From: Bacillota bacterium
GTDB lineage: Bacteria > Bacillota > UBA994
Length of the DNA: 64,000 nucleotides
Assembly (NCBI GenBank): GCA_018333655.1
Contig: JAGXTJ010000010.1
Coordinates: forward strand, 39,280 to 103,279
Reading direction: 5' to 3'
Part shown: positions 4,507 through 64,000 of the stretch, one piece after another
Layout: every line of letters starts with the position of its first letter
Position numbering within the stretch: the stretch's first letter is position 1
Notes under the pieces: model-generated
Told to the model about the DNA's origin: nothing
Seen by the model: the letters and a program-made list of their open reading frames with translations, nothing else
Databases searched by the model: none
Made by a program: the position numbers and the translations under genes

Positions 4507-6482
4507 ATACTGTGTTCAATCTAGTTTCGGACTTCCGTCCGACCGGCGATCAACCTGAGGCCATTGCCAGTCTGTGCCGAGGCCTTCGTGAAGGGGCTCG
4601 CGAACAGACTTTACTGGGGGTAACAGGCTCTGGCAAGACCTTTACGGTCGCCAATGTCATCGCGACAGTTAACCGACCTACCCTAGTGCTCGCCCACAAC
4701 AAAACTCTAGCCGCCCAGTTGTGCGGCGAATTCCGCGAGTTCTTTCCGCATAATGCGGTGGAGTACTTCGTCAGTTACTACGATTACTACCAGCCAGAGG
4801 CTTACATCCCGCGTACAGATACCTATATCGAAAAGGATGCCCAAATTAATGAAGAGATAGACAAGCTTCGGCATTCGGCCACTTCGGCCTTGCTGGAGAG
4901 ACGTGATGTGATCATTGTGGCCAGTGTTTCCTGCATCTATGGTCTTGGTAGCCCAGAGGAATACGCCGAAAATGCCGTTTCGCTCCGCGTGGGCATGCAG
5001 AGGGAGCGCAATGACCTCCTCAGGCGCTTAGTGGCGATGCAGTACGCGCGTAATGACATCGCCTTTGAGAGGGGTACCTTTAGAGTGCGGGGGGATAGCG
5101 TGGAAATTATTCCCGCGGCCCAAATGGAGCGAGCCCTGCGCATAGAATTTTTTGGCTCGGAAATTGAGCGTATTACGGAGATAGACACCTTGACAGGTGA
5201 GATTTTGGGGCGACGCAACCATGTCTCTATCTTCCCCGCTTCCCACTTTGTCACGAGTAATGACAAGTTGCAGTTAGCCATTTTGCGCATTGAGAATGAA
5301 CTACAGGCCAGGCTCGCTGAGTTTCGCGCGCGTGACCAAGTTCTTGAGGCCCAGCGTCTTGAGCAGAGGTGTCGCTACGATTTAGAGATGATGCGCGAAA
5401 TTGGCTTTTGTTCCGGCATCGAAAACTACTCCCGCCATTTAGAGGGCCGAGAGGTAGGCACTCCCCCGTACACCTTGCTCGACTACTTTCCGCAGGACTT
5501 TCTCCTGGTGGTCGATGAATCCCATGTGACCCTGCCCCAAGTGCGCGGCATGTATGCCGGGGATCGCTCGCGCAAGACGGTGCTCGTGGAACACGGCTTC
5601 CGCCTTCCTTCGGCTATGGATAACCGTCCTTTGACTTTCGCGGAGTTTAATGGTCGCTTCGGGCAAGCGATATATGTCTCTGCCACTCCCGCCCCCTACG
5701 AGCTAGGGCAGAGCAGCCAAGTAGTAGAGCAGATCATTCGCCCGACCGGGCTCATCGACCCCGAGATTTCGGTGCGGCCTACGCGCGGACAGATTGATGA
5801 CTTGTATGGTGAGATCCGTAGCCGCATCGAGGCCGGCGAACGTATTTTAGTAACTACGCTTACAAAGCGCATGGCCGAAGACCTTACCGACTATTATAAA
5901 GAGATGGGACTTAAGGTGCGCTACTTACATTCAGACATTGAGACGCTCGAGCGCATGAGCATTCTGCGTGCCTTGCGCCTAGGAGAGTTCGATATATTAG
6001 TGGGGATCAACTTGCTGCGCGAAGGGCTCGACCTACCGGAGGTCTCCTTGGTGGCCATCCTAGATGCTGATAAAGAAGGCTTCTTGCGTTCTACCTCGTC
6101 ACTTATTCAAACTATCGGCCGGGCAGCTCGCAATGCCCATGGGCGTGTAATTATGTACGCCGACAAGGTAACAGACTCCATGCAGCGTGCTATCGAGGAG
6201 ACGAACCGACGCCGTGAACGGCAAGTGGTCTACAACAGTCAGAACAATATAGTGCCCACGAGTATTATCAAGAAGGTCCACGAGGTCATCGAGGCCACTT
6301 TGGCCATAGATATGAAAGAGGATGGTAAAGGGGGGCGCGGCTTCCAGGCGTTATCAGTCGGCGACAAGGCTCGAGTCCTCAAGCAGGTGGAGACAGAAAT
6401 GAAAACGGCAGCCAAGGCACTGCAATTTGAAAGGGCGGCCGAGCTTAGGGACTTACTGATCGAACTAAAGGCTAAATCGTAA
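4494..6482 (+). CDS. uvrB: Excinuclease ABC subunit B (UvrB)
   Basis: N-terminal [17 protein letters not shown], helicase motif [13 protein letters not shown] box (VVDESHVT), and the C-terminal UvrB/UvrC interaction motif (FERAAELRD). GTG start at 4494, or at 4512 after AGGTGA; the start is uncertain by a few codons. Confidence 0.95.
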
Positions 6483-49901: not shown

Positions 49902-49972
49902 CTAGTTCACAGGTTGTCAACCAGGCAGGCCTGTGCTAGAATCAAGAGAGTTTAGGTGGGGGGGGGAACAGA

Positions 49973-53709: not shown

Positions 53710-55050
53710 TTGCTCTGGAAAGGGAGAGTGACTTGTTCTGTGTTCAAGAAGGTATGGGCAGAAAATGTGCGAACCTTACTGGCTGATAACGATATCACTG
53801 TGGCTGAGGCTGCGCGGCTACTGGGTACTTCTAAGCAGTATCTGACGACCATACTTGGCGAGAGCCTGCCGCAGAGCACCAAAGAACAGGTTGTAGAGAG
53901 TCTTTCTTTACTGCTCCATGCACACCCGGGCAGGCTCTATTCCCCTCTGCCCCTAGTCCCAGAGGAACAACTCACCACAGCGCCTGCGGTAAACTGGCAG
54001 CTGCTGGACATGCCCGTCAGTGCCGCCGAGCAGGCCGTACTAGCTGAGCGTCATTTTTTGGGCGGCGACTATCGCGGTAGCCTGGCCTTTGTCAGACACC
54101 TACTGGCCGCGCATGGAGAGAGCCTCTTGCCCATAGCCACGGCGCAGGCACAACTTCTCGCCGGAAAGTCGGCGTGCCTGCTTGGGCAATCCGCCTTGGC
54201 GAGGGAATACCTCAAGTTGGCACAGCGCGTCTTTCAGAAGCGAGTCAGCGCCCAACCACAAAAATACTTGCCCCTGTGTCTAGAATGTTATCGCTACGGG
54301 GCCCTGGCGGCTCACATGGAGAGAGATTACGCCCTGGCGATGAAGCTACAGCGTCAAGCACTGCAGCTCTTAGTGAAACACCGGGGCGAGGACGATAATC
54401 TGGGCATGAAGTGGGAAACTTTAGGACAGAATATACTGCGTACGGTGGTCAAGCAGGGCAGACTGTCGGGCATCGTCGCGGTTGCCGACGAGCTCGAGGC
54501 TTTAGCAGGCCGGCTTGATTCCCCGGCGTTATCTGAGCGCGCAGTATTCACGCGGCAGTTCGCCCTCTATGCCGTGGCAAGGGCGCAAGGCATTCCGGGC
54601 CAGCAGGCCATGATGCCACCACCTCAGCTAGTGAGAGACGCCTATATATTCCTCCACTACGGGCTAGTGTTGTGGGATAGGGGTGGAGACCTGCGGCTCT
54701 TTACCGATAGCCTGCCGGTGGATACAGGTAGCGAAGAACTTGCCCTAGTCCATGAATGGTTGAGCAACCTGGCCGAGACCGGTGAAACAAAACTACGCTT
54801 TTCGTCGACCAACACCCTAAAGCCATGGGGTCTCCTAATAGGGGCCTGTACCGCACTAGAAAGTGATGCTCTGCAGGCTTTTCACATGTGGCAAGAGGCC
54901 CTGTTCGATCTCAAGGCTAACCGCGATATACCCCTGTACCTGTATTCCTTGGCCATGGGGCTCGATAAGTTTTCTGCCCATATTACGGCCCATAACCGCC
55001 AAGTGCTGCAAGCGGTGCTCGATAAAGTCCTGTCTCAGTTTACAGCATAG
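53710..55050 (+). CDS. XRE-family HTH transcriptional regulator with large helical/TPR-like C-terminal domain
   Basis: N-terminal HTH (ITVAEAARLLGTSKQYLTTILG) followed by ~380 aa of helical repeats. True start uncertain: TTG 53710 or GTG ~53734. Confidence 0.6.
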   Translation: MLWKGRVTCSVFKKVWAENVRTLLADNDITVAEAARLLGTSKQYLTTILGESLPQSTKEQVVESLSLLLHAHPGRLYSPLPLVPEEQLTTAPAVNWQLLDMPVSAAEQAVLAERHFLGGDYRGSLAFVRHLLAAHGESLLPIATAQAQLLAGKSACLLGQSALAREYLKLAQRVFQKRVSAQPQKYLPLCLECYRYGALAAHMERDYALAMKLQRQALQLLVKHRGEDDNLGMKWETLGQNILRTVVKQGRLSGIVAVADELEALAGRLDSPALSERAVFTRQFALYAVARAQGIPGQQAMMPPPQLVRDAYIFLHYGLVLWDRGGDLRLFTDSLPVDTGSEELALVHEWLSNLAETGETKLRFSSTNTLKPWGLLIGACTALESDALQAFHMWQEALFDLKANRDIPLYLYSLAMGLDKFSAHITAHNRQVLQAVLDKVLSQFTA

Positions 55051-55078
55051 TTACCGAGATGCTTATAATAGTAGGGAG

Positions 55079-57226
55079 ATGAGATGGGTGGCAACTACCA
55101 GCAACGAAGACAAGATCCTGTACCTGATGCGGCAAAAAGTATACAAACCTTTAACCGAGAGCGAGTTGGTGCAAGCGCTAGCTGAGAGCGGAGAAGGCGA
55201 TGTACCCTGGCGCGAGCTTATCCTGGCTCTTGAGCAGTCCGGCCACATCATTAAGACGCGCTATCATCGCTATGGCTTGCCAGAGCAGATGAATTTGGTC
55301 GTGGGGCACCTACTCATGCAAGCCCCAGGGTATGGCTTTGTAGTGCCGCAAGTAAAAAACGGCCAGAGTGACATCTATATTCCCAGCCACGCCCTAGGCG
55401 AAGCCTTCCATCAAGACAAGGTCGTGGTACGCCTAGTCAGCAAGCCTGCTGGCGACCGCAAAGCCGAAGGTGAAGTTATTCGGGTACTAGCTCGTAGGAA
55501 CGAGACCATTGTCGGCACCTTCTCTGGCTCCAGCGGGGAGTTCGGCTTCGTCAAGCCGGATGAAAAACGCCTGCCCTTTGCCGTCTTTATTCAGAAAGGA
55601 AAGACCGCAGGTGCGCAGGGCGGGGAAAAAGTAGTCGTGCGCATCACGCGCTGGCCGGTAAAGCGACAGGGACCCGAGGGTGAAGTCATTGAAGTGCTAG
55701 GGGCCGGCAGCGACCCCTTGGTGGCCATGCAAGGTGTGGCACGACAGCTTAATCTGCCGCGCGAGTTCTCCCAAGAAGTTTTAGCCGAGAGCGAGCAGGT
55801 TCAGTCTGAAATTGACGCCCGGGAGCTTGCCAAGCGCCGCGACTTACGTCAATCTAACATCGTCACCATAGATGGGGCAGATGCCAAAGACCTCGATGAC
55901 GCCGTAGAGGTCGAGATAGGTGCCAATGGCAACTTTCGCCTGGGGGTGCACATCGCCGACGTAGCCCACTATGTGCCGGAAAACTCTGCTCTGGACAAAG
56001 AGGCTTTCTGGCGGGGGACAAGCATCTACTTTCTCAATCAAGTCATACCCATGCTGCCGCCCGCCTTGTCGAACGGCATTTGCAGCTTGAATCCACGTGT
56101 TGACCGCCTAGCGCTGAGTATAGTTATGGAAATCGATCACCAAGGTCAGGTCGTAAGTCACGACCTGTTTGAAAGCGTAATCAAGACGCGGGAGCGTTTT
56201 ACCTACACGGAAGTCAATGAGTTGCTTGCAGGCACGGATGCAGCTCTGCGTGAGAGATACGCTGATCAACTTGCACACCTAGAGCTCATGGTTAAACTGC
56301 GCGACTTGCTCCGTGTAAAGCGCGAAAAGCGTGGCTCCATCGATTTCGAGCTGTCTGAGGCCAAGATCACCCTTGACGACAAGGGTCACGTAGCAGACAT
56401 TGCGCCTCGTGCTAGGACCCTTTCTGACAGTATCATTGAAGAATTCATGTTAGCCGCGAATGAAACTGTCGCCGCGCGCTTTTATGACCTGCAGGTGCCC
56501 TTTGTGTACCGGGTACATGAGGAACCCAAGGAAGAGAAAATAGAAGACCTTAATCTGCTGCTAAACAATTTTGGCCTGCGCATCAAGACACCGCGCGGTA
56601 AGCTGCACCCCCACGCCTTTAGGCAGGTGATGGACAGTATCGAAGGCAGGCCCGAGGCCCATCTCCTAAATCGCGTCCTGCTGCGCTCCATGATGCGCGC
56701 GCGTTACAGCCCCGATTGCGCTGGTCACTTTGGCCTCGCCGCCAAATTCTACTGCCACTTTACCTCGCCCATAAGGCGCTACCCAGACCTCTTAATTCAT
56801 CGCATCATCAAAGAGGTGCTCAGGGAGGGACAAATTTCTTCGCGGCGGGGGCGTCTGCTGACCGAGGTAGTCGATAGCGCTGCGCGGCAATCATCCGAGC
56901 GCGAGCAGCTGGCTACGGAGGCCGAGCGCACCATCGAGGACATCAAGAAGGCGGAATACATGGCCGGAAAAATAGGCGAGACCTTTGCGGGCATTATCTC
57001 CGGAGTGGTTTCCTTTGGTTTCTTTGTGGAGCTGCCGAACACGGTAGAAGGGCTTGTGCATGTGTCAAACCTGCATGATGATTACTACGTGTTTGATGCC
57101 GAAGCCTATACTCTAGTGGGTCGTCGTCTAAAGAAGCGTTACCGCATGGGAGACGCCGTGCAGATAAAGGTAGAGAAAGTAAATGTCGAAGAAGCAACCG
57201 TCGATTTTTCTCTTCTCGAGACCTAA
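55079..57226 (+). CDS. rnr: Ribonuclease R
   Basis: N-terminal HTH/cold-shock region, RNB catalytic domain (DGADAKDLDDAV), and a C-terminal S1 domain. ATG 55079 after AGGGAG. The ORF track's 54863 start is an artefactual N-terminal extension that overlaps the upstream gene. Confidence 0.92.
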   Translation: MRWVATTSNEDKILYLMRQKVYKPLTESELVQALAESGEGDVPWRELILALEQSGHIIKTRYHRYGLPEQMNLVVGHLLMQAPGYGFVVPQVKNGQSDIYIPSHALGEAFHQDKVVVRLVSKPAGDRKAEGEVIRVLARRNETIVGTFSGSSGEFGFVKPDEKRLPFAVFIQKGKTAGAQGGEKVVVRITRWPVKRQGPEGEVIEVLGAGSDPLVAMQGVARQLNLPREFSQEVLAESEQVQSEIDARELAKRRDLRQSNIVTIDGADAKDLDDAVEVEIGANGNFRLGVHIADVAHYVPENSALDKEAFWRGTSIYFLNQVIPMLPPALSNGICSLNPRVDRLALSIVMEIDHQGQVVSHDLFESVIKTRERFTYTEVNELLAGTDAALRERYADQLAHLELMVKLRDLLRVKREKRGSIDFELSEAKITLDDKGHVADIAPRARTLSDSIIEEFMLAANETVAARFYDLQVPFVYRVHEEPKEEKIEDLNLLLNNFGLRIKTPRGKLHPHAFRQVMDSIEGRPEAHLLNRVLLRSMMRARYSPDCAGHFGLAAKFYCHFTSPIRRYPDLLIHRIIKEVLREGQISSRRGRLLTEVVDSAARQSSEREQLATEAERTIEDIKKAEYMAGKIGETFAGIISGVVSFGFFVELPNTVEGLVHVSNLHDDYYVFDAEAYTLVGRRLKKRYRMGDAVQIKVEKVNVEEATVDFSLLET

Positions 57227-57322
57227 TTTTGTTCTCACACCCCTCCGGGTACCCTTTACAAATGCCATTCAGTGGAGTATTCTAGAATCGTACTACACAG
57301 TGTAGTAGAAAGGGAGTGGCTC

Positions 57323-57598
57323 ATGAAGCCCATTTATGTGGTCATGGCAGTTCTCGTCATGGCAGTAGCTTTTTTTGGCTACAATTACTTTGTCAGTCTC
57401 AATGATGGCGGTGATTTTGGCGCTATTGAGCGGGAGGCCTTGGCCTTTTACCAGCAACAAAACCCGGCCTTGACCAATCTTTCGGCAGAGGTAATTGACT
57501 ACGGCTGTCATATCGAAATCGAAATTAGACAGGGTGGCGAGCGCCTGACACGTCTCGGTTTTGCCGGGCAGGGTCGTTTCTACGAGATAGGCAGGTAG
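57323..57598 (+). CDS. Small membrane-anchored protein of unknown function
   Basis: MKPIYVVMAVLVMAVAFFGYNYF anchor followed by an ~65-aa soluble domain. Confidence 0.45.
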   Translation: MKPIYVVMAVLVMAVAFFGYNYFVSLNDGGDFGAIEREALAFYQQQNPALTNLSAEVIDYGCHIEIEIRQGGERLTRLGFAGQGRFYEIGR

Positions 57599-57603
57599 TT
57601 GTT

Positions 57604-58029
57604 ATGCTGCGGCAGCGCCCGGTAGCCCCCGATTTTAAGCCCCACCGCCTTGGTCTAGAGCAGGTGCTAGGTGAGCTTGAGGCCGAAATTATGGAGATAG
57701 TCTGGACGGTAGGGGAGACAACGGTGCGCGAGGTGCATCACAGTTTGCTTAAAGTCCGCGACATTGCCTATACTACGGTGATGACGGTAATGACACGGCT
57801 AGCAGACAAAGGTCTCCTCCTGCGCGAGGCTGATGGTCATGCCTACCTCTATCGACCGCGCCTGTCTCGTGCGGCCTTCGTTTCAGAGATGGTCGGCGAA
57901 GTGCTCGATGCACTGCTGGCCTCGCATTCCTCCCAGACGGTCTCTCATTTTATGGCCCGCCTCGACCAGGCCAATGCTCTAGAACTGCAAGCACTAGAGG
58001 AACTCATTCGAAAGCGCAAGGGGGGGTAA
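57604..58029 (+). CDS. BlaI/MecI/CopY-family transcriptional repressor
   Basis: Winged-helix N-terminus (LGELEAEIMEIVWTVGETTVREVHHSL...YTTVMTVMTRLADKGLL) and a C-terminal dimerisation helix. 141 aa. Confidence 0.85.
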   Translation: MLRQRPVAPDFKPHRLGLEQVLGELEAEIMEIVWTVGETTVREVHHSLLKVRDIAYTTVMTVMTRLADKGLLLREADGHAYLYRPRLSRAAFVSEMVGEVLDALLASHSSQTVSHFMARLDQANALELQALEELIRKRKGG

Positions 58030-58940
58030 TGGTGTCCTTTAACCTCATGGTTGCCCCCTACATCCTCTATGTGCTCGTGAGCGGGGCTCTGCTCTACGGC
58101 GGAGCGCAAGTGTTATCGCGCCTACTGCCCTTGCCCCCTCGGACGAAAATGTTGCTTTATGCCGGAGTCCTCATTTTACCCGTTGTGACGTATACCTACT
58201 ACTTGCGCCATATGTCCGCAGACTGCGACATGTTAGCGAACCCCGAGGCACTTCGTATCTGTTCGCTGGCCTACCGCTACAGCGACATCCTTACACCTTT
58301 GACCCTACTACTTCTCGTCGTTTATGCGCTGTGGCGTGCTTGGCAAGTCTTAGCGTCTCCCGTTAGACGAAGCCGCATCAGCACCGACAGCGCCTTAGTC
58401 ACACGTGTGCGCAGTATCCTCCAGGAATGGGGCTACCACGACAAAGTAGCTATTGGCATCATCGACAGTCACTACCCCACGGCCTTTGTCAGAGGTTTTT
58501 TTCGCCCCGAGCTCGTGCTTTCGCGCGGTATGCTAGACCTCTTACCAGATGAAGCACTGCGCTCAGTGCTTGCACACGAAGTTTCGCACCTCGAGGGTGG
58601 CGACAATGTCTACAATCTGGTGCTGCTCTTACGAGAAGTCGCTTTCTTTTCGCCCTTTGCGCATCTCGCTTACCAGGGCTACACTGAAGAGTGCGAGTTG
58701 GCAGCAGATATGGCCGCGGGTAAACGTTCTGACAAACTAGCCCTCGCTTCTGCTATTCTTAAGGTCACACAAAGAGGGCAGGAGCTGTATCGCTTTGCCT
58801 GGCAGCACAGTTACTTAGTGGGAAGAGCGTCCGTGTCTTTGCGGGTGCATTCCCTATTGCGCGAAGGCCAGGTCTACTCTGCTTTGCCGCCATGGTTGGC
58901 GCTTAGCCTACTCGCCACGCTGGTGTTGGCGCTATGTTAG
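58029..58940 (+). CDS. BlaR1-like M56 family zinc peptidase (signal-transducing anti-repressor; short form without extracellular sensor domain)
   Basis: Four TM segments and an HExxH motif (LAHEVSHLEGGDN). Translationally coupled to the BlaI-like gene (TAATG). Confidence 0.75.
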   Translation: MVSFNLMVAPYILYVLVSGALLYGGAQVLSRLLPLPPRTKMLLYAGVLILPVVTYTYYLRHMSADCDMLANPEALRICSLAYRYSDILTPLTLLLLVVYALWRAWQVLASPVRRSRISTDSALVTRVRSILQEWGYHDKVAIGIIDSHYPTAFVRGFFRPELVLSRGMLDLLPDEALRSVLAHEVSHLEGGDNVYNLVLLLREVAFFSPFAHLAYQGYTEECELAADMAAGKRSDKLALASAILKVTQRGQELYRFAWQHSYLVGRASVSLRVHSLLREGQVYSALPPWLALSLLATLVLALC

Positions 58941-59001
58941 CCCTGCGGGGCTTTTTCTCGGGACTATGTACTACAATGTGTAGTAGTAAGGAGCAGTAAC
59001 G

Positions 59002-60162
59002 GTGATAAAATTTCTGCAAGTAGCACTTAAGAATTTGTTTAGAAGGCGCTTTCGCACCCTCCTGACTATCCTAGGCATCGCCATTGGTATCTCTATGCTC
59101 TTTAGCTTCTTGGCTTTTAGTCAAGGATACGAAGCTTCTATGCGGGGGGAGCTAAATAAAATAGGGGCGCATATGCTGGCCATCGCCAAAGGATGCCCCT
59201 ACGAGGCCACGGCTTTAATTATGCATGGCGGGGTCATAGAAGATTTTCTCACCACCGATGATGTACTGCGGGTCAGTGAAATGCCTAATGTACAGAGCGC
59301 CGTCGGCAATTTCATGAACCAAGTTGTGCTCCCTCACGGTAAGAGTGTGGTGGTATTTGGCATGAACGAGTACACTTTCGCTCAAAAACCATGGTGGGTG
59401 ATTCGCGGTGAGAGATTTACGGGGGAGAACTCCATCATTCTGCCTGAAACTATGGCCACCGAGCTCGGGCTCAACATTGGTGATGTCTACCGGATGCCGG
59501 GCAAAGAAATAGATTTCGTCATCAGCGGCCTACTAGAAAAGACAGGCACCCAGGACGACAAATTTGTCTATGTCCCCTTCGCTACTGCCCAGCGCTTGTT
59601 TAACGCTGAGGGCAAGGTGACCTCCATCTCCATCTTGCTCGAGGACTTGGGGCGTGTGCAAGAAGTGGTTGACAGTGTGGAGTCACTGCCCGATGTGCAG
59701 GCTATTACCATGTCGCAAGTGCTAGCTACTGCGCAAACGCTTATGAGTTCAGCCCAAGCTATGATCAACTCCATTGTAATTATCGCCGTAGTCATCAGTG
59801 CGCTGGGTGTCATGAACAGTATCCTCATGTCTGTCTTTGAGCGCACCAAGGAAATCGGCATGATGAAGGCCGTCGGAGCCACGGGGAGCGATATTATCGC
59901 CCTCGTATGGATAGAGAGCGTCATTCTGTCGCTGGCGGGTGGCGTGGTTGGCATACTGGCCTCCTTTGCTACAGCGAGTTTCATCGAAACATTTATCCGC
60001 GGCCTCATTCCCTTCGCCCCCTTAGGCGAGCTACTCGCCTTTGACGCTAACACGGTGGCAATCAGTCTGATGAGTTCACTTGTGCTTGGTCTAGTCGCAG
60101 GGGCTTATCCGGCCATACGAGCTGCGGAGTTAAGTCCCATGGAAGCCATAAGGAGTGAGTAG
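59002..60162 (+). CDS. ABC transporter permease, FtsX/MacB-like fold
   Basis: N-terminal TM segment, a large extracytoplasmic domain, and three C-terminal TM segments. GTG start after AAGGAG. Confidence 0.8.
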   Translation: MIKFLQVALKNLFRRRFRTLLTILGIAIGISMLFSFLAFSQGYEASMRGELNKIGAHMLAIAKGCPYEATALIMHGGVIEDFLTTDDVLRVSEMPNVQSAVGNFMNQVVLPHGKSVVVFGMNEYTFAQKPWWVIRGERFTGENSIILPETMATELGLNIGDVYRMPGKEIDFVISGLLEKTGTQDDKFVYVPFATAQRLFNAEGKVTSISILLEDLGRVQEVVDSVESLPDVQAITMSQVLATAQTLMSSAQAMINSIVIIAVVISALGVMNSILMSVFERTKEIGMMKAVGATGSDIIALVWIESVILSLAGGVVGILASFATASFIETFIRGLIPFAPLGELLAFDANTVAISLMSSLVLGLVAGAYPAIRAAELSPMEAIRSE

Positions 60163-60163
60163 C

Positions 60164-60823
60164 ATGAGCCTCATAGTAACAAGTAAACTAGGCAAGAACT
60201 ATCGTCGCGGCAGCGAAACCGTACACGCGCTAGAGGATGCCAGCCTCACCATCAAGGCGGGCGAACTCCTCGCCCTCGTCGGGCCATCTGGTTCCGGCAA
60301 GACAACTTTTATGAACTTACTGGGCTGCTTAGACACCCCGAGCTCCGGCAGCTACCTCCTCAATGGACAGGAAGTAGCCGGTCGCAAGGAAAGTGAACTC
60401 GTTAAAATTCGGCAGCAAAATATCGGCTTCGTCTTTCAGCAGTTTTTTCTTCTGCCCACTTTGACAGTGCAAGAAAATGTAGAGTTGCCTCTGCTCTTTA
60501 ACCCCAGTGGCAAGAGCCGGGCGAACGAACTGCTAGAGCTAGTCGGGCTCACCCACCGCAGGCATCACTTACCCAAGGAGCTTAGTGGGGGTGAAATGCA
60601 GCGTGTGGCCGTCGCCAGAGCCTTAATTAATCGGCCCAAGATTCTGCTCGCCGACGAACCCACCGGCAACCTCGACAGTAAGAACAGTGAAAAAGTAATG
60701 GCACTCTTTAACGACTTGCACAAGCAAGGTCTGACCATTGTCTTGGTTACCCACAACATGGAGATAGCGAAGCACAGTCAGAGAGTAGTTCGTTTGGCAG
60801 ATGGGCGGATTATCGAAAGCTAG
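60164..60823 (+). CDS. ABC transporter ATP-binding protein (MacB/LolD-type)
   Basis: GPSGSGKTT, LSGGEMQRV, and LLADEPTGNLD. ATG 60164 after AAGGAG. Confidence 0.9.
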   Translation: MSLIVTSKLGKNYRRGSETVHALEDASLTIKAGELLALVGPSGSGKTTFMNLLGCLDTPSSGSYLLNGQEVAGRKESELVKIRQQNIGFVFQQFFLLPTLTVQENVELPLLFNPSGKSRANELLELVGLTHRRHHLPKELSGGEMQRVAVARALINRPKILLADEPTGNLDSKNSEKVMALFNDLHKQGLTIVLVTHNMEIAKHSQRVVRLADGRIIES

Positions 60824-60985: not shown

Positions 60986-62212
60986 ATGGCTTATTTTTGT
61001 GAAAGGATGAGCAGGATGACGATGTCGGACAGTGGTAAGCGGCTTAAAATTACTACCTTGGGTCACTTTGCTGTCGTAAACGGGAGTAGCTGTATTTCGC
61101 ATTCCTGTGGTCGCTCGCGAAAGATATGGGATCTATTTAAGTTATTGCTGGTTCACCACGACCGTGTATTAATGCCGGAGTCTATTGTAGAACAGCTGTG
61201 GCCCGAAAAACCCTATGATGATGCCAGGGGGGCCGTCCGCACTCTTGTCCATAGGCTGCGGAGTGTGCTGGGTGAAGATATGGACTACATAAAGTTCACT
61301 CAAGGGGGCTATACCTTTAGCCTCTACCACGACGTCTGGTTAGATATACATGTTTTCGAGAACACCTGCCGACAAGCGCGACAACTAGCCAAGCAGGGCC
61401 TCATGCCAGAAGCTGTGCATCTGTACAAGCAGGGGCTATCGTTGTACCAAGGCGATTTGTTACCTGAATGCCCGTACAGTGATTGGTTGTTGCCCCATAG
61501 GGGTCATTACCACAGTCTGTATGTACAGGCCGTTGCTGAGCTGGCGGTATTGCTCGACGAGCAGCATTCCTACGCGGAGCTTGAGGAAGAAGTAACTAGA
61601 GCCCTCATGGTTGATTACTACGAAGAAACCCTGCACCTAATTTTACTGCAGACACTGCTGCGAGAAGGTAAATTCACCCAGGCCAAGTGGCATTACGAAA
61701 AGGTCACTTCTGTTTTCTACCGCGAAATGGGCCTCAAGCCGAGTGCGGCCATGAAAGGGCTCCTGCGCCTTATCTTAGGGCAAGAGACCGAAAACAACAG
61801 GGCGGCGGCAGAACATGTGCCCATACTAGATGCTGTGCCCTGCCAAGAGGAGTCTCGTGGGGCTCTCCTCTGCGAGCGCGAGGTTTTTAGGGTCATCTGT
61901 AGCCTAGAGAGCCGCCGTGCGGAGCGGACAGGCAGCACAGGGCAAGTGGCGGTGCTCGCCGTGACGCAGGCCCACATCAGCGATTCACTGCTAGGTGAGA
62001 AAGGTGATGAAGGCCACGTTCTCGAAAAGCTGCTACGGGCTGTGTTGCGCAAGGGCGATGTCCTCTGTCGCGATGGCCTTCATCAGTTCTTTGTCCTCCT
62101 TCCTGCTACCACTTATGAACAAGCGCAGAGCATCATCAGGCGAGTAGAGGACGCTGCTAAAGAAAGGGGGCTCTTACTAAGAAGGCGTCTACAGCCACTA
62201 AGCGCCTCTTAA
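60986..62212 (+). CDS. SARP-family regulator (OmpR-type winged helix + BTAD) with C-terminal degenerate GGDEF domain
   Basis: N-terminus LKITTLGHFAVVNG...WDLFKLLLVHHDRVLMPESIVEQLWPE...RTLVHRLRSVL is an OmpR/SARP wHTH, followed by a BTAD helical region (LYKQGLSLYQGDLLPE...). The C-terminal block ...VAVLAV...RKGDVLCRDGLHQFFVLLPATTYEQAQSIIRRV aligns with the GGDEF core: RxxD is retained and GGEEF is replaced by GLHQF. The start is uncertain between 60986 and ~61017. Confidence 0.65.
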   Translation: MAYFCERMSRMTMSDSGKRLKITTLGHFAVVNGSSCISHSCGRSRKIWDLFKLLLVHHDRVLMPESIVEQLWPEKPYDDARGAVRTLVHRLRSVLGEDMDYIKFTQGGYTFSLYHDVWLDIHVFENTCRQARQLAKQGLMPEAVHLYKQGLSLYQGDLLPECPYSDWLLPHRGHYHSLYVQAVAELAVLLDEQHSYAELEEEVTRALMVDYYEETLHLILLQTLLREGKFTQAKWHYEKVTSVFYREMGLKPSAAMKGLLRLILGQETENNRAAAEHVPILDAVPCQEESRGALLCEREVFRVICSLESRRAERTGSTGQVAVLAVTQAHISDSLLGEKGDEGHVLEKLLRAVLRKGDVLCRDGLHQFFVLLPATTYEQAQSIIRRVEDAAKERGLLLRRRLQPLSAS

Positions 62213-62239: not shown

Positions 62240-62278
62240 CCGCGGACCAGCGTTGGTCCGCGGCTTTGTCATTCTGTT
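62240..62278 (+). terminator. Intrinsic terminator (CCGCGGACCA-gcgt-TGGTCCGCGG + T-rich)
   Basis: 10-bp perfect stem, read directly. Confidence 0.75.
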
Positions 62279-62414
62279 GGGCTGTTTGTGTTCTAGCGAA
62301 ATATGTAATTAGTCTGTAATTTAGATGCAACCCCCATAAAACTTGCCTGTATCTAACTTGTAACCCCCTATTGCTACACTGACCTTAGTAAATGAAGAGT
62401 AGGAGGGTTTTCTC

Positions 62415-63179
62415 ATGACCAGGCTCGAACAGCGCCGACAGCGCCACCTGCACACACAAGAAAGCTGGCGTGCCTTAGGCAAAGTTGTCTTGTTGCTCTC
62501 CTTGGTTGCTCTGCTGCTCCTACCGCCAAAGTTGCCGATGGTTGGAGCAAAGTTTACAAGCTGGGGTCTTTCACAAGGGGCGCTGCGTAGCGGTGACTCA
62601 TCATACAGTCTATCCTTGCATCCTGGTAGTAGCATGACTAATGACAGCCCAGGGGATCCTGGTCCAGCTTTTAGGGTGGCGGAATGGAGAGGTGGACAGC
62701 TCAGTCTAGATTTTGGCACCTACCCTGTCGGCAACAACAGAAATTTTCCGCAGGTTCTCGTGGTGCACAATGCCAGCGGTTGGAGCTCGGGGCTACACTT
62801 GCAGCTCAGCGGCGAAGTAGCACAGTTCATCGCCATAGCCGAGCCAAGTGCATGGATCGGCCCACGTGGTAGCATCTCTCTAGGTTTTCGCCTCGCGAGT
62901 AGTCCGACTGATAAAGACGGTGAGTTCGTCGGCACCCTGCACATTGTAACTGACAGAGGAATTACGCTCGGCGCGTTACCAGTACGACTAAGGCTGGCTA
63001 AGGCCAAGAGTAGCGCTAGTCAAGCTACGTTACCTGCACCCCAAGTATCTGCGCCTGAAGTAGCCCTTAGTGACGAAGGAGGTAGTAGCGCAACTGGCGG
63101 TACCCCTTTTGAAGCTGAGGCGCAAAGCTCGGCCGGAGCAGAAGAAAGCGGTGAGACAAATGGAAATCCCGGTAGCTAA
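62415..63179 (+). CDS. Secreted/membrane-anchored accessory protein, TapA-position in a tapA-sipW-tasA-like operon
   Basis: N-terminal hydrophobic segment (VVLLLSLVALLLLPP), a following ...GAKFTSWG stretch with weak resemblance to the SipW-class AxFxDxE signal, and a Ser/Ala/Glu-rich acidic C-terminus. Overlaps the sipW start. Confidence 0.5.
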   Translation: MTRLEQRRQRHLHTQESWRALGKVVLLLSLVALLLLPPKLPMVGAKFTSWGLSQGALRSGDSSYSLSLHPGSSMTNDSPGDPGPAFRVAEWRGGQLSLDFGTYPVGNNRNFPQVLVVHNASGWSSGLHLQLSGEVAQFIAIAEPSAWIGPRGSISLGFRLASSPTDKDGEFVGTLHIVTDRGITLGALPVRLRLAKAKSSASQATLPAPQVSAPEVALSDEGGSSATGGTPFEAEAQSSAGAEESGETNGNPGS

Positions 63180-63759
63180 AAATTCATCGCTGCGCGATGC
63201 AGTGCATAAATTTTCTCGCCATGTCGGCAACTCTCTGTTTGTAATTTCTCTCGTCCTAGCGGTGGTCCTGGTGTTCTTCCTAATTCAGAGTCGTGTCACT
63301 GGGGGGGTGCCGGCCGTTCTTGGGCATCAGTTGTACATAGTTGGTGGCGGCAGCATGAGCCCTGCCTTCTCTGCAGGCAGCGTCGTCATGGTTCGGCCGC
63401 AGGAGGCCAGTACGATTCGCCTCGGCGACATTATCACTTATCGTGACCCCGATTCAAACACCACGGCCATCATTGTCACGCATCGTGTGGTAGGCATAGC
63501 ACAGGGCGAAGCGCTCACCTTTACGACCCGCGGCGACGCAAATCATGCCGATGACCCGCTACCGCTCCCGGCCAGCAACATTATCGGGCGCGTGGCCTAC
63601 ACCATCCCGTTTCTTGGCTACGTGCTTAGTTTTATGCAGACAAAGAACGGCATGTTGCTAATGCTCGTCCTACCGGCCAGTGTCGTAATTGTGGTCGAAG
63701 TGCGCAAGCTCATGGGCTACGCACGTAGCATAGATAACCAAGGGGGGGGATGCGTATAG
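63160..63759 (+). CDS. sipW: Signal peptidase I, SipW (archaeal/ER-type S26B) family
   Basis: TM anchor followed by YIVGGGSMSPAFSAGSVVMVRP (catalytic Ser region) and ...HRVVGI... ATG 63160 after GGTGAG; the ORF track start at 63070 is in frame but overlaps the upstream gene. Confidence 0.8.
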   Translation: MEIPVAKNSSLRDAVHKFSRHVGNSLFVISLVLAVVLVFFLIQSRVTGGVPAVLGHQLYIVGGGSMSPAFSAGSVVMVRPQEASTIRLGDIITYRDPDSNTTAIIVTHRVVGIAQGEALTFTTRGDANHADDPLPLPASNIIGRVAYTIPFLGYVLSFMQTKNGMLLMLVLPASVVIVVEVRKLMGYARSIDNQGGGCV

Positions 63760-63868
63760 CAGAGGCATTTGCAGCATCACACTCGCCTGAGGACGCTAGC
63801 CGGGCTGTCCGGTGTGGGCGTGGCGTACCGCAAGTACGTCAAAAATAGAATATAATGGAGGCCTAGAA

Positions 63869-64000
63869 GATGAAAACTAAAATGATCGTGAGCATGCTGA
63901 TTCTCGCTTTGGCCGCCGCCTTGGTCGGTGGCGCGACGATGGCTATCTTTACCGATACGGAGAACAACAATGGCAACACCTTTACCGCAGGTACGGTCAA
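63869..64000 (+). CDS. TasA/camelysin-family secreted protein (SipW-cognate signal peptide), 5' part only (window end)
   Basis: MKTKMIVSMLILALAAALVGGATMAIFTDTENNNGNTFTAGTV carries the hallmark AxFTDxE...NTFTAGT signal of SipW substrates. RBS TGGAGG. Confidence 0.8.

Follow-up and report, generated by a model that had tools for sequence, protein, structure and literature searches.

A SipW/TasA-type fibre operon of uncultured Bacillota with an undescribed accessory protein and a repeat-array promoter next to a SARP-GGDEF gene

The locus described here lies at the 3' end of a 64-kb stretch of contig JAGXTJ010000010.1 (the window), which belongs to the metagenome-assembled genome (MAG) of an uncultured 'Firmicutes bacterium'. 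Three genes on the + strand follow one another: an open reading frame (ORF) for a 254-amino acid (aa) accessory protein, named ORF-A here (62415-63179, with an AGGAGG ribosome-binding site at 62401-62406); a sipW-like gene for a signal peptidase of 199 aa (63160-63759), which overlaps ORF-A by 20 nt; and a compact TasA-family gene (63870-64000), which reads MKTKMIVSMLILALAAALVGGATMAIFTDTENNNGNTFTAGTV and is truncated by the window end 43 codons in. The original prediction for this DNA proposed a tapA-sipW-tasA-like operon of three co-oriented genes in a non-Bacillus context. The ORFs were confirmed, with the third start at 63870 and not 63871, and the related loci are labelled Dethiobacter, Clostridium or Syntrophomonadaceae. 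An operon of the SipW/TasA type is ordinary as such and already known outside Bacillus; archaeal relatives are reportedly on record as well (PMC9245690). We show that its accessory protein belongs to an undescribed family and that its promoter carries a conserved array of 11-bp repeats, and we propose how both may serve fibre formation.

Gene content and conservation of the cassette

Exact-sequence searches with ORF-A and the peptidase retrieved many metagenomic contigs and one NCBI MAG (GCA_018336025.1), all >99% identical to the window. From such near-identical contigs (L001 to L012) the full cassette could be read: ORF-A, SipW, a TasA-family protein of 153 aa (L001 11456-11917) and a TasA-like paralogue of 216 aa, followed by genes for a class II aminoacyl-tRNA synthetase and smpB. 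The cassette recurs in more distant relatives. In L013, whose ORF-A is 55% identical to that of the window, the entire neighbourhood is syntenic. In L014, L015 and L016 (ORF-A identity of 37-38%) the flanks differ and the cassette of ORF-A, sipW and a short and a long TasA-like gene is intact. The same four genes are found intact in L018, a GTDB MAG locus, and L020 keeps ORF-A and sipW, followed by three PF12389 ORFs (321, 196 and 220 aa). ORF-A and sipW overlap or abut in every relative examined. Because the cassette recurs in 37-55% identical relatives with differing genomic neighbourhoods, we consider ORF-A to be co-conserved with sipW and the two TasA-like genes, which sets it apart from the generic lipoprotein that it might have been.

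The peptidase passes the profile TIGR02228 (120.9 bits, cut-off 51.85) and aligns with human SEC11A (7p2p) over the Ser (GSMSPAF), His (THRV) and Asp (GDANHADD) boxes. On these two grounds it is assigned, as originally predicted, to the S26B signal peptidases I of the endoplasmic reticulum (ER)/archaeal type. Against the Bacillus SipW equivalog NF046067 it reaches 127.6 bits, below the cut-off of 190. Judged by these profile scores, it is a SipW-like enzyme outside the Bacillus orthologue group. In the window and its relatives, sipW adjoins the genes for its cognate TIGR04088 substrates.

The 43-residue fragment of the third protein encoded in the window already passes TIGR04088 (38.2 bits, cut-off 19) and PF12389 (24.8 bits, cut-off 22.5). 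The full 153-aa protein (PF12389 54.4 bits, TIGR04088 33.8 bits) and the 216-aa paralogue (29.6 and 24.0 bits, respectively) are above both cut-offs, and NCBI annotates the former as 'SipW-dependent-type signal peptide-containing protein [Firmicutes bacterium]'. A profile built from 46 relatives of the short subunit finds both solved forms of TasA, the monomer (5of1) and the fibre (8aur), with E about 1e-13; the match to 8aur_A (E 8.5e-13) runs nearly end to end, pairing profile positions 35-181 with chain residues 7-206. The short subunit was modelled by AlphaFold2 (AF2) with a mean predicted local distance difference test (pLDDT) score of 83.8. In a Foldseek search with this model, in which all E-values are weak, the TasA fibre 8aur comes second. 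The invariant residues F27, P62 and Q149 of the family correspond to F29, P62 and Q232 of TasA, the 'proline box' that constitutes the most conserved part of the protomer interface (Roske et al., PMC10151520). The full gene thus bears out the TasA/camelysin identity first proposed from its N-terminus. At the same time, the protein scores 37 bits against the TasA equivalog NF046066 (cut-off 450) and a weak 20.9 bits against TIGR04090, the BsaA family (cut-off 60); it is a compact TasA-family member of about 128 mature residues and not a TasA orthologue.

The Pfam name of PF12389, 'Camelysin metallo-endopeptidase', would make these proteins camelysin-type metalloproteases instead of fibre subunits. 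We regard this as highly improbable: the mature short subunit has only about 128 residues, its conserved residues fall at TasA protomer-interface positions and not at a metal site, no HExxH-type motif is visible in it, and its relatives of solved structure are TasA, as monomer and as fibre.

Two further features of the subunits were observed. The mature short subunit contains no lysine and a single arginine and has a calculated pI of about 4.05, a composition that would be in keeping with a strongly alkaline habitat. At the C-terminus, the two TasA-like paralogues share the conserved motif AEQT(A/K/R)NN(P) in most species examined (L001 11900-11917 and 12621-12641), and the Q of this motif aligns with the TasA interface residue Q232; the short paralogue of L014 ends in ATQPNNP instead.

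A G8 homopolymer near the 3' end of sipW had been pointed out. It is indeed present in the last codons of the gene (63742-63749, + strand) as one of 15 homopolymers of ≥ 7 nt in the window, but it does not appear to signal a function. Its length is identical in 8/8 aligned sequences (the window and seven near-identical contigs), the L013 orthologue lacks it (C-terminus NERGECV), and slippage to G7 or G9 would leave SipW intact except for its last 4 residues, with a tail extension of 10 or 30 aa. A role as phase-variation switch was therefore rejected, the tract being invariant and slippage touching the extreme C-terminus only. A second tract inside sipW, G7 (63301-63307, encoding TGGV), is likewise invariant in 8/8 aligned sequences, and a G9 tract is located elsewhere in the window (49958-49966). 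Between sipW and the TasA-like gene, a gap of 110 nt (63760-63869) contains two short hairpins (about 63800-63813 and 63826-63839) and a perfect TATAAT (63851-63856) that abuts a GGAGG ribosome-binding site (63857-63861). These elements could represent an internal promoter or an RNA-processing site that raises the subunit over ORF-A and SipW.

Architecture and proposed role of ORF-A

ORF-A gave no match in Pfam and NCBIfam at E ≤ 1, and the profile of its family matched no PDB chain at E ≤ 10, although an X-ray structure of TapA has been reported. Homology to TapA was rejected on these results, in line with the original prediction, which saw no obvious similarity to TapA and suggested a novel accessory component; the fold class differs too, as described below. 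Close homologues amount to only 14 clusters among 5.8 billion proteins, all from uncultured Bacillota, and the family grows to 97 clusters (50% identity) in an exhaustive hidden Markov model (HMM) search. ORF-A thus represents an undescribed protein family, and the accessory component of the operon is novel.

The protein can be divided into four parts. Residues 1-45 (62415-62549) comprise a long basic N-region and a hydrophobic helix that ends in LP-MVG-A, a predicted SipW-type signal peptide; the AF2 model places a helix at residues 3-35. Residues 46-62 (62550-62600; KFTSWGLSQGALRSGDS) form a flexible arm, with pLDDT < 50 over residues 39-62. Residues 63-200 (62601-63014) fold in the model into a complete PapD/ASH/MSP-like Ig beta-sandwich, a single domain that is predicted confidently and contains the invariant motif PG.S.TNDSPG..GPAF…L.FGTYP.GNNR.FP.VL. 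Residues 201-254 and the stop codon (63015-63179) make up a disordered tail rich in Ser, Ala, Glu and Gly, which varies in length and sequence, cannot be aligned among the 14 homologues and has pLDDT < 50 over residues 202-254. The gene call of the L014 orthologue begins too late, and an in-frame GTG at 5947 (5947-6003) restores a conserved N-terminus (SRLQQRHRRR…) that matches all other homologues.

For comparison, mature TapA begins at residue 44 and has a complete Ig domain with flexible N- and C-termini (PMC10151520). Its N-terminus is homologous to that of TasA and is donated to TasA to start the filament, whereas its complete fold keeps TapA out of the filament interior; tapA also overlaps sipW (PMC10151520). 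As modelled, ORF-A has the layout of TapA built on a different fold. Its best structural matches include the chaperones CsuC, FimC, PapD and Caf1M and also CEP192, and no TapA or TasA chain occurs among the best 50-60 structural matches; this PapD/ASH-like fold is not the V-set Ig fold of TapA, and both observations weigh against ORF-A as counterpart of TapA.

The link to TasA lies in the N-terminal arm. L40, P41, A45 and F47 are invariant across the 14 homologues, most of which read LPxTxA↓YFTDREETQxxFRA at the predicted cleavage site (arrow), with T, S or V at position -3 of the family as in TasA-like substrates. The family motif after this site, A-x-F-T-D…F-x-A, contains the same F…F-x-A strand motif with which mature TasA-like proteins begin (MA↓IFTDTENNNGNTFTAG). 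It is clear in most members and diverged in the copy of the window, whose arm appears to be a diverged TasA-like N-terminal strand motif. TIGR04088 matches 6 of the 14 close homologues weakly and the wider family clearly, with a best E of 8e-8 and fully canonical signals. When the wider family was aligned with the TasA-like family (hhalign), the probability was 94% (E 1.4e-7), anchored on the N-terminal arm; with the close homologues alone it was 13% (E 2e-3). AF2 models of ORF-A and of the short TasA-like protein draw similar ASH/MSP/CEP192 matches. We also considered ORF-A as a diverged TasA paralogue. Homology of the core is not claimed, as the signal comes from the N-terminus and the register of the body is unstable.

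Based on the conserved layout and this motif, we favour a reading in which the operon works like tapA-sipW-tasA of Bacillus, with ORF-A as the functional counterpart of TapA, that is, as initiator or anchor of the fibre, and with a SARP-controlled promoter (see below). Both TasA-like proteins would lose their A-x-F-type signal peptides to SipW, which, to go by the conserved site, probably cleaves ORF-A after A45 as well. The TasA-like subunits would then polymerise by donor-strand exchange of the freed N-terminal strand. The freed arm of ORF-A (K46 to about S62), its proposed donor strand, would insert into and complement the first TasA-like subunit, and its Ig domain and acidic tail would stay at the filament end, possibly mediating attachment. 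Since a complete Ig-like domain cannot accept a strand, ORF-A would not be built further into the fibre.

Several observations weigh against this reading. ORF-A of the window gives no TIGR04088 match at E ≤ 1, and its arm reads KFTSWGLSQGALRS instead of YFTDREET…F.A, a divergence (KFTSWG…L.S) that it has in common with L013 and the homologue P0003. The two hhalign runs moreover place the body of ORF-A in different registers, so that the similarity beyond the N-terminus is ambiguous. Our confidence in the reading as a whole is moderate because the arm of the window copy has diverged; for the same reason, and with TIGR04088 blank, cleavage and strand donation are least certain for the window's own ORF-A.

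The diverged arm, which lacks a canonical FTD.E, together with the unusually long basic N-region and the strong hydrophobic helix, would also fit an ORF-A that is not cleaved at all. It would then be a signal-anchored PapD-like domain outside the membrane that serves as chaperone or docking platform for TasA-like subunits and tethers the fibres to the cell, with no strand donated. The chaperone-usher chaperones among its best structural matches and the reported membrane anchoring of BsaA oligomers in C. perfringens (PMC11580942) fit such a role. However, A at -1 and F at +2 are invariant in the family, position -3 is occupied by T, S or V just as it is in TasA-like substrates, and TapA is cleaved despite a signal peptide of 43 residues. 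ORF-A also has one Ig domain and not a two-domain boomerang, and no usher gene is present in any locus. We consider an uncleaved ORF-A unlikely.

Slightly less probable still, in our estimate, is that ORF-A is merely a SipW-secreted matrix or adhesin Ig module with an acidic tail, which takes no part in fibre assembly and resembles TasA only in the recognition site of the shared peptidase. What ORF-A and TasA-like proteins share is found mostly at the cleavage site and in the ~15 residues that open the mature proteins, other lineages put unrelated cargo such as the VWA protein BsaC in their sipW operons, and PapD/ASH/HYDIN-like and 'choice-of-anchor D' domains are common surface modules. Yet the motif runs past the cleavage site (F..A/F.A at +12 to +14), where the peptidase does not need it, ORF-A and sipW are strictly adjacent and overlapping in five or more species, and the three-part architecture of ORF-A matches that of TapA. 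We therefore retain ORF-A as the probable TapA counterpart.

Repeat promoter and SARP-GGDEF regulator

The region upstream of ORF-A (62286-62414) is AT-rich, as had been predicted, with 38% G+C against 53.5% for the window. It contains an array of six 11-bp direct repeats (62304-62369, + strand; TGTAATTAGTC, TGTAATTTAGA, TGCAACCCCCA, TAAAACTTGCC, TGTATCTAACT and TGTAACCCCCT) with the heptad core TGYAAYY. The original prediction had listed GTAATT (62305) with GTAATTT (62316) and GCAACCCCCA (62327) with GTAACCCCCT (62360, 33 nt from start to start). These repeats are present and not due to chance, but they are parts of one 6 x 11-bp array and not two separate pairs. The periodicity was quantified as lag-11 identity in 66-nt windows across the whole 64 kb and in 5000 shuffles per promoter. 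The array scores 0.53, the highest value in the 64 kb (mean 0.246, standard deviation 0.058), and 0/5000 shuffles reach it. TGYAAYY is under-represented in the window overall, and four exact copies lie within the array.

Contigs L001 to L012, being >99% identical to the window, are uninformative on promoter conservation, and L013, L015, L018 and L020 were used instead. Lag-11 identity is 0.42 in the L013 promoter (20/5000 shuffles reach it) and 0.43 in that of L015 (4/5000 shuffles), which has eight units that end 9 bp before TGaTATGCT. Counting the window, the periodicity is significant in three species. In L018 and L020, the promoter-proximal repeats and the -10 are conserved. No phased array is visible in L014 (maximal lag-11 identity 0.38).

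Downstream, the array abuts an extended -10-like element, TGcTACACT (62372-62380, + strand), with no good -35. This 9-mer is identical in L013, although the downstream protein is only 55% identical, and L015, L018 and L020 have TGnTATGCT in its place, equally far from their last repeat. In the window, L013 and L015, the final heptad stops 9 bp short of the -10 (TACACT in the window). When the + strand in front of ORF-A was scanned for a standard sigma-70 consensus promoter, none was found, and the -10 is assigned by its cross-species conservation alone. The missing -35 is what is expected of an activator-dependent promoter.

A candidate activator is encoded directly upstream. The gene at 60986-62212 (+ strand) codes for a SARP, with an OmpR-type winged helix and a BTAD domain (Trans_reg_C 33.6 bits, BTAD 62.3 bits), fused to a degenerate GGDEF domain. 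Its start is uncertain, as gene callers use 61016 or 61022 on identical contigs. A hairpin that resembles an intrinsic terminator (62240-62263, + strand), with a 10-bp stem of which 8 pairs are G-C, a 4-nt loop and then a T-rich tail, CTTTGTCATT, closes the regulator gene off from the fibre operon; the hairpin is kept in L013. The regulator family is as small as that of ORF-A, with only 15 clusters, and occurs on the same contigs as the cassette. The regulator adjoins the cassette in the window, L013, L015, L018 and L020; L014 has no adjacent SARP gene, and it is in precisely those five loci, and not in L014, that the array occurs.

By the published rule, SARPs bind direct repeats that are spaced by 11 or 22 bp and of which the 3' one lies 8 bp from the -10 (PMC10936776). 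The promoter of the window, with 11 bp spacing throughout and 9 bp to the -10, fits this rule, and the 11-bp repeats are best explained as candidate SARP sites. The adjacent regulator would bind the six phased repeats that run up to the extended -10, and the operon would thereby have its own activator-dependent promoter. It weighs against this that SARP repeats are usually described in actinomycete promoters, as two to three repeats, and that we find six repeats and 9 bp in place of 8.

Alternatively, the repeats may form an UP-like element with curved or phased A/T tracts, or they may be sites of another regulator such as the product of a small ORF described below, with the adjacency of the SARP gene being incidental. 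The number of repeats exceeds that of typical SARP boxes, the distal units (TGTAATT) differ from the proximal ones (TGTAACC, TGTATCT), and L013 keeps mainly a GNAA core. Because the geometry fits the published rule, the array is found only beside a SARP gene and is not seen in L014, and the regulator family and the cassette share their contigs, we judge this alternative improbable and keep SARP binding as the preferred explanation.

The C-terminal domain of the regulator may sense cyclic di-GMP (c-di-GMP), to judge from its residues. It has no intact GG(D/E)EF: CRDGLHQF, with GLHQF, stands where R-x-GGDEF is expected, and orthologues have GLEQF or GQQQF. The RxxD site, R355-K-(G/S)-D358, is invariant in three orthologues at the canonical distance of five residues upstream and reads R355-K-G-D358 in the window. 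The loss of GGDEF with the RxxD site kept suggests a c-di-GMP receptor rather than a cyclase. Less favourable to this assignment is the GGDEF match of the window regulator itself, which at 23.1 bits falls just under the cut-off of 23.8; the orthologues in L018 and L020 pass it.

In most relatives, a small conserved ORF (78-94 aa) was observed between the phased-repeat promoter and ORF-A: L014 5583-5852, L015 5653-5889, L016 2-265, L018 2104-2388 and L020 about 4530-4800. It shares the motif KGQSFLIQ.KF..NNCWQG.IQWLEGQK.CSFRS.LEM and has neither a signal peptide nor a Pfam match, and its product may be a cytoplasmic regulator or a partner of the SARP protein. The window and L013 lack this ORF and have the promoter immediately in front of ORF-A; tblastn found no credible copy elsewhere in the window.

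Regulation and structural genes can also be seen apart. L022 (1046-4383), the only locus inspected for a distant member of the ORF-A family, encodes this member, P0122, in a rearranged cluster of a TasA-like protein, proteins of 206 and 255 aa, an S26 peptidase and the ORF-A-like protein. A sigma-54 activator and a two-component system come next in place of the SARP; the structural genes are linked and the regulation is swapped. Further upstream in the window, at 54863-60823, genes for RNase R, a BlaI/BlaR-like pair (Penicillinase_R and Peptidase_M56/M48) and a MacB-type ABC transporter (FtsX permease and ATPase) are conserved with L013. They are absent from L014 to L016 and have no evident tie to the fibre operon.

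Relation to known systems and biological meaning

The operon shares with tapA-sipW-tasA of B. subtilis the order of accessory gene, sipW and subunit, the overlap of the accessory gene with sipW, the ER-type peptidase, the A↓xF-type signals and the TasA-family subunits. Both TapA and ORF-A have a long signal peptide, a TasA-like flexible N-terminal arm, a complete Ig-like domain and a disordered C-terminal part (half of the protein in TapA), but they have no detectable sequence similarity, and the fold of ORF-A is PapD/ASH-like where that of TapA is V-set Ig. The short subunit has about 128 mature residues against 234 in TasA, and two TasA-like paralogues are present here. SipW and the subunit fall below the Bacillus equivalog cut-offs. 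The tapA operon of Bacillus is controlled by SinR, AbrB and RemA, whereas a SARP-GGDEF hybrid adjoins the operon here.

Other lineages offer partial parallels. The B. cereus system sipW-tasA…calY also has two TasA-family paralogues, for which heteropolymers are proposed in that species, and its accessory protein CapP (BC1280) is likewise lineage-specific, SipW-processed and composed of a structured N-domain and a disordered C-domain. CapP is reported to be exclusive to the B. cereus group, however, and ORF-A belongs to another family (no matches) and is encoded upstream of sipW. The sipW-bsaA-bsaB-bsaC operon of C. perfringens is, like the present one, a SipW operon of non-Bacillus Bacillota with two TasA-like proteins and one unrelated accessory cargo; its accessory BsaC is a VWA protein encoded at the operon end, and BsaA polymerises via Lys-Asn isopeptide bonds, which the mature short subunit of the present operon, lacking lysine, cannot form. 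With the chaperone-usher chaperones PapD, FimC and Caf1M, ORF-A shares the fold class of its core and the general principle of donor-strand complementation. It differs from them in having one domain and not two, in the absence of an usher from any locus, in its Gram-positive host and in that its proposed strand comes from the N-terminal arm and not from a G1 strand within the domain itself. Among the lineages studied, each possesses an accessory protein of its own (TapA, CapP or BsaC); ORF-A is a further, undescribed one, and its layout is convergent with that of TapA.

For the regulator, the closest comparison is with Streptomyces SARPs such as AfsR and its afs box. These have in common with the present system the OmpR-type winged helix and BTAD, a poor -35, and direct repeats whose spacing is a multiple of 11 bp and of which the 3' one lies 8-9 bp from the -10. 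The present system differs in its Bacillota host, in the target, which is a fibre operon and not a biosynthetic cluster, in the degenerate GGDEF extension at the C-terminus instead of NOD/TPR, and in the six to eight repeats, whose role as SARP sites is putative. The pair of SARP regulator and repeat promoter is unusual for a SipW/TasA-type operon. That ORF-A represents a separately evolved class of initiator, a PapD/ASH-like Ig protein released by SipW that donates a strand and stands under the control of a c-di-GMP-sensing SARP, is a bolder combination of these proposals, which we put forward only tentatively.

No published link between TasA and these organisms was found in the literature. 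The genome-derived relatives of ORF-A (L017 to L021 and L003) are MAGs, and their isolate names (CROMO_*, BA1A108, HKB214) suggest serpentinite-hosted high-pH groundwaters, to which the fibre module may be confined, going by isolate names alone.

TasA-type fibres are a major protein scaffold of Gram-positive biofilms, with a related form in archaea, and the start of their assembly has been worked out only for TapA of B. subtilis and in part for CapP of B. cereus, both of which are lineage-restricted. The present finding extends a known system and does not overturn current understanding. A third, unrelated accessory protein with the same layout would suggest a general principle, namely a complete Ig-like domain between an N-terminal strand resembling that of TasA and a disordered tail, and this design would hold even where the accessory protein itself is replaced. 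The short subunit, with about 128 residues and no lysine, lends itself as a minimal model to structural studies. The promoter and the adjacent regulator provide a directly testable case of a SARP activator outside secondary metabolism and may connect c-di-GMP to matrix production in Bacillota. If true, a SARP would for the first time be seen to control a biofilm fibre operon, and c-di-GMP would be linked directly to TasA in Bacillota of high-pH serpentinite aquifers.

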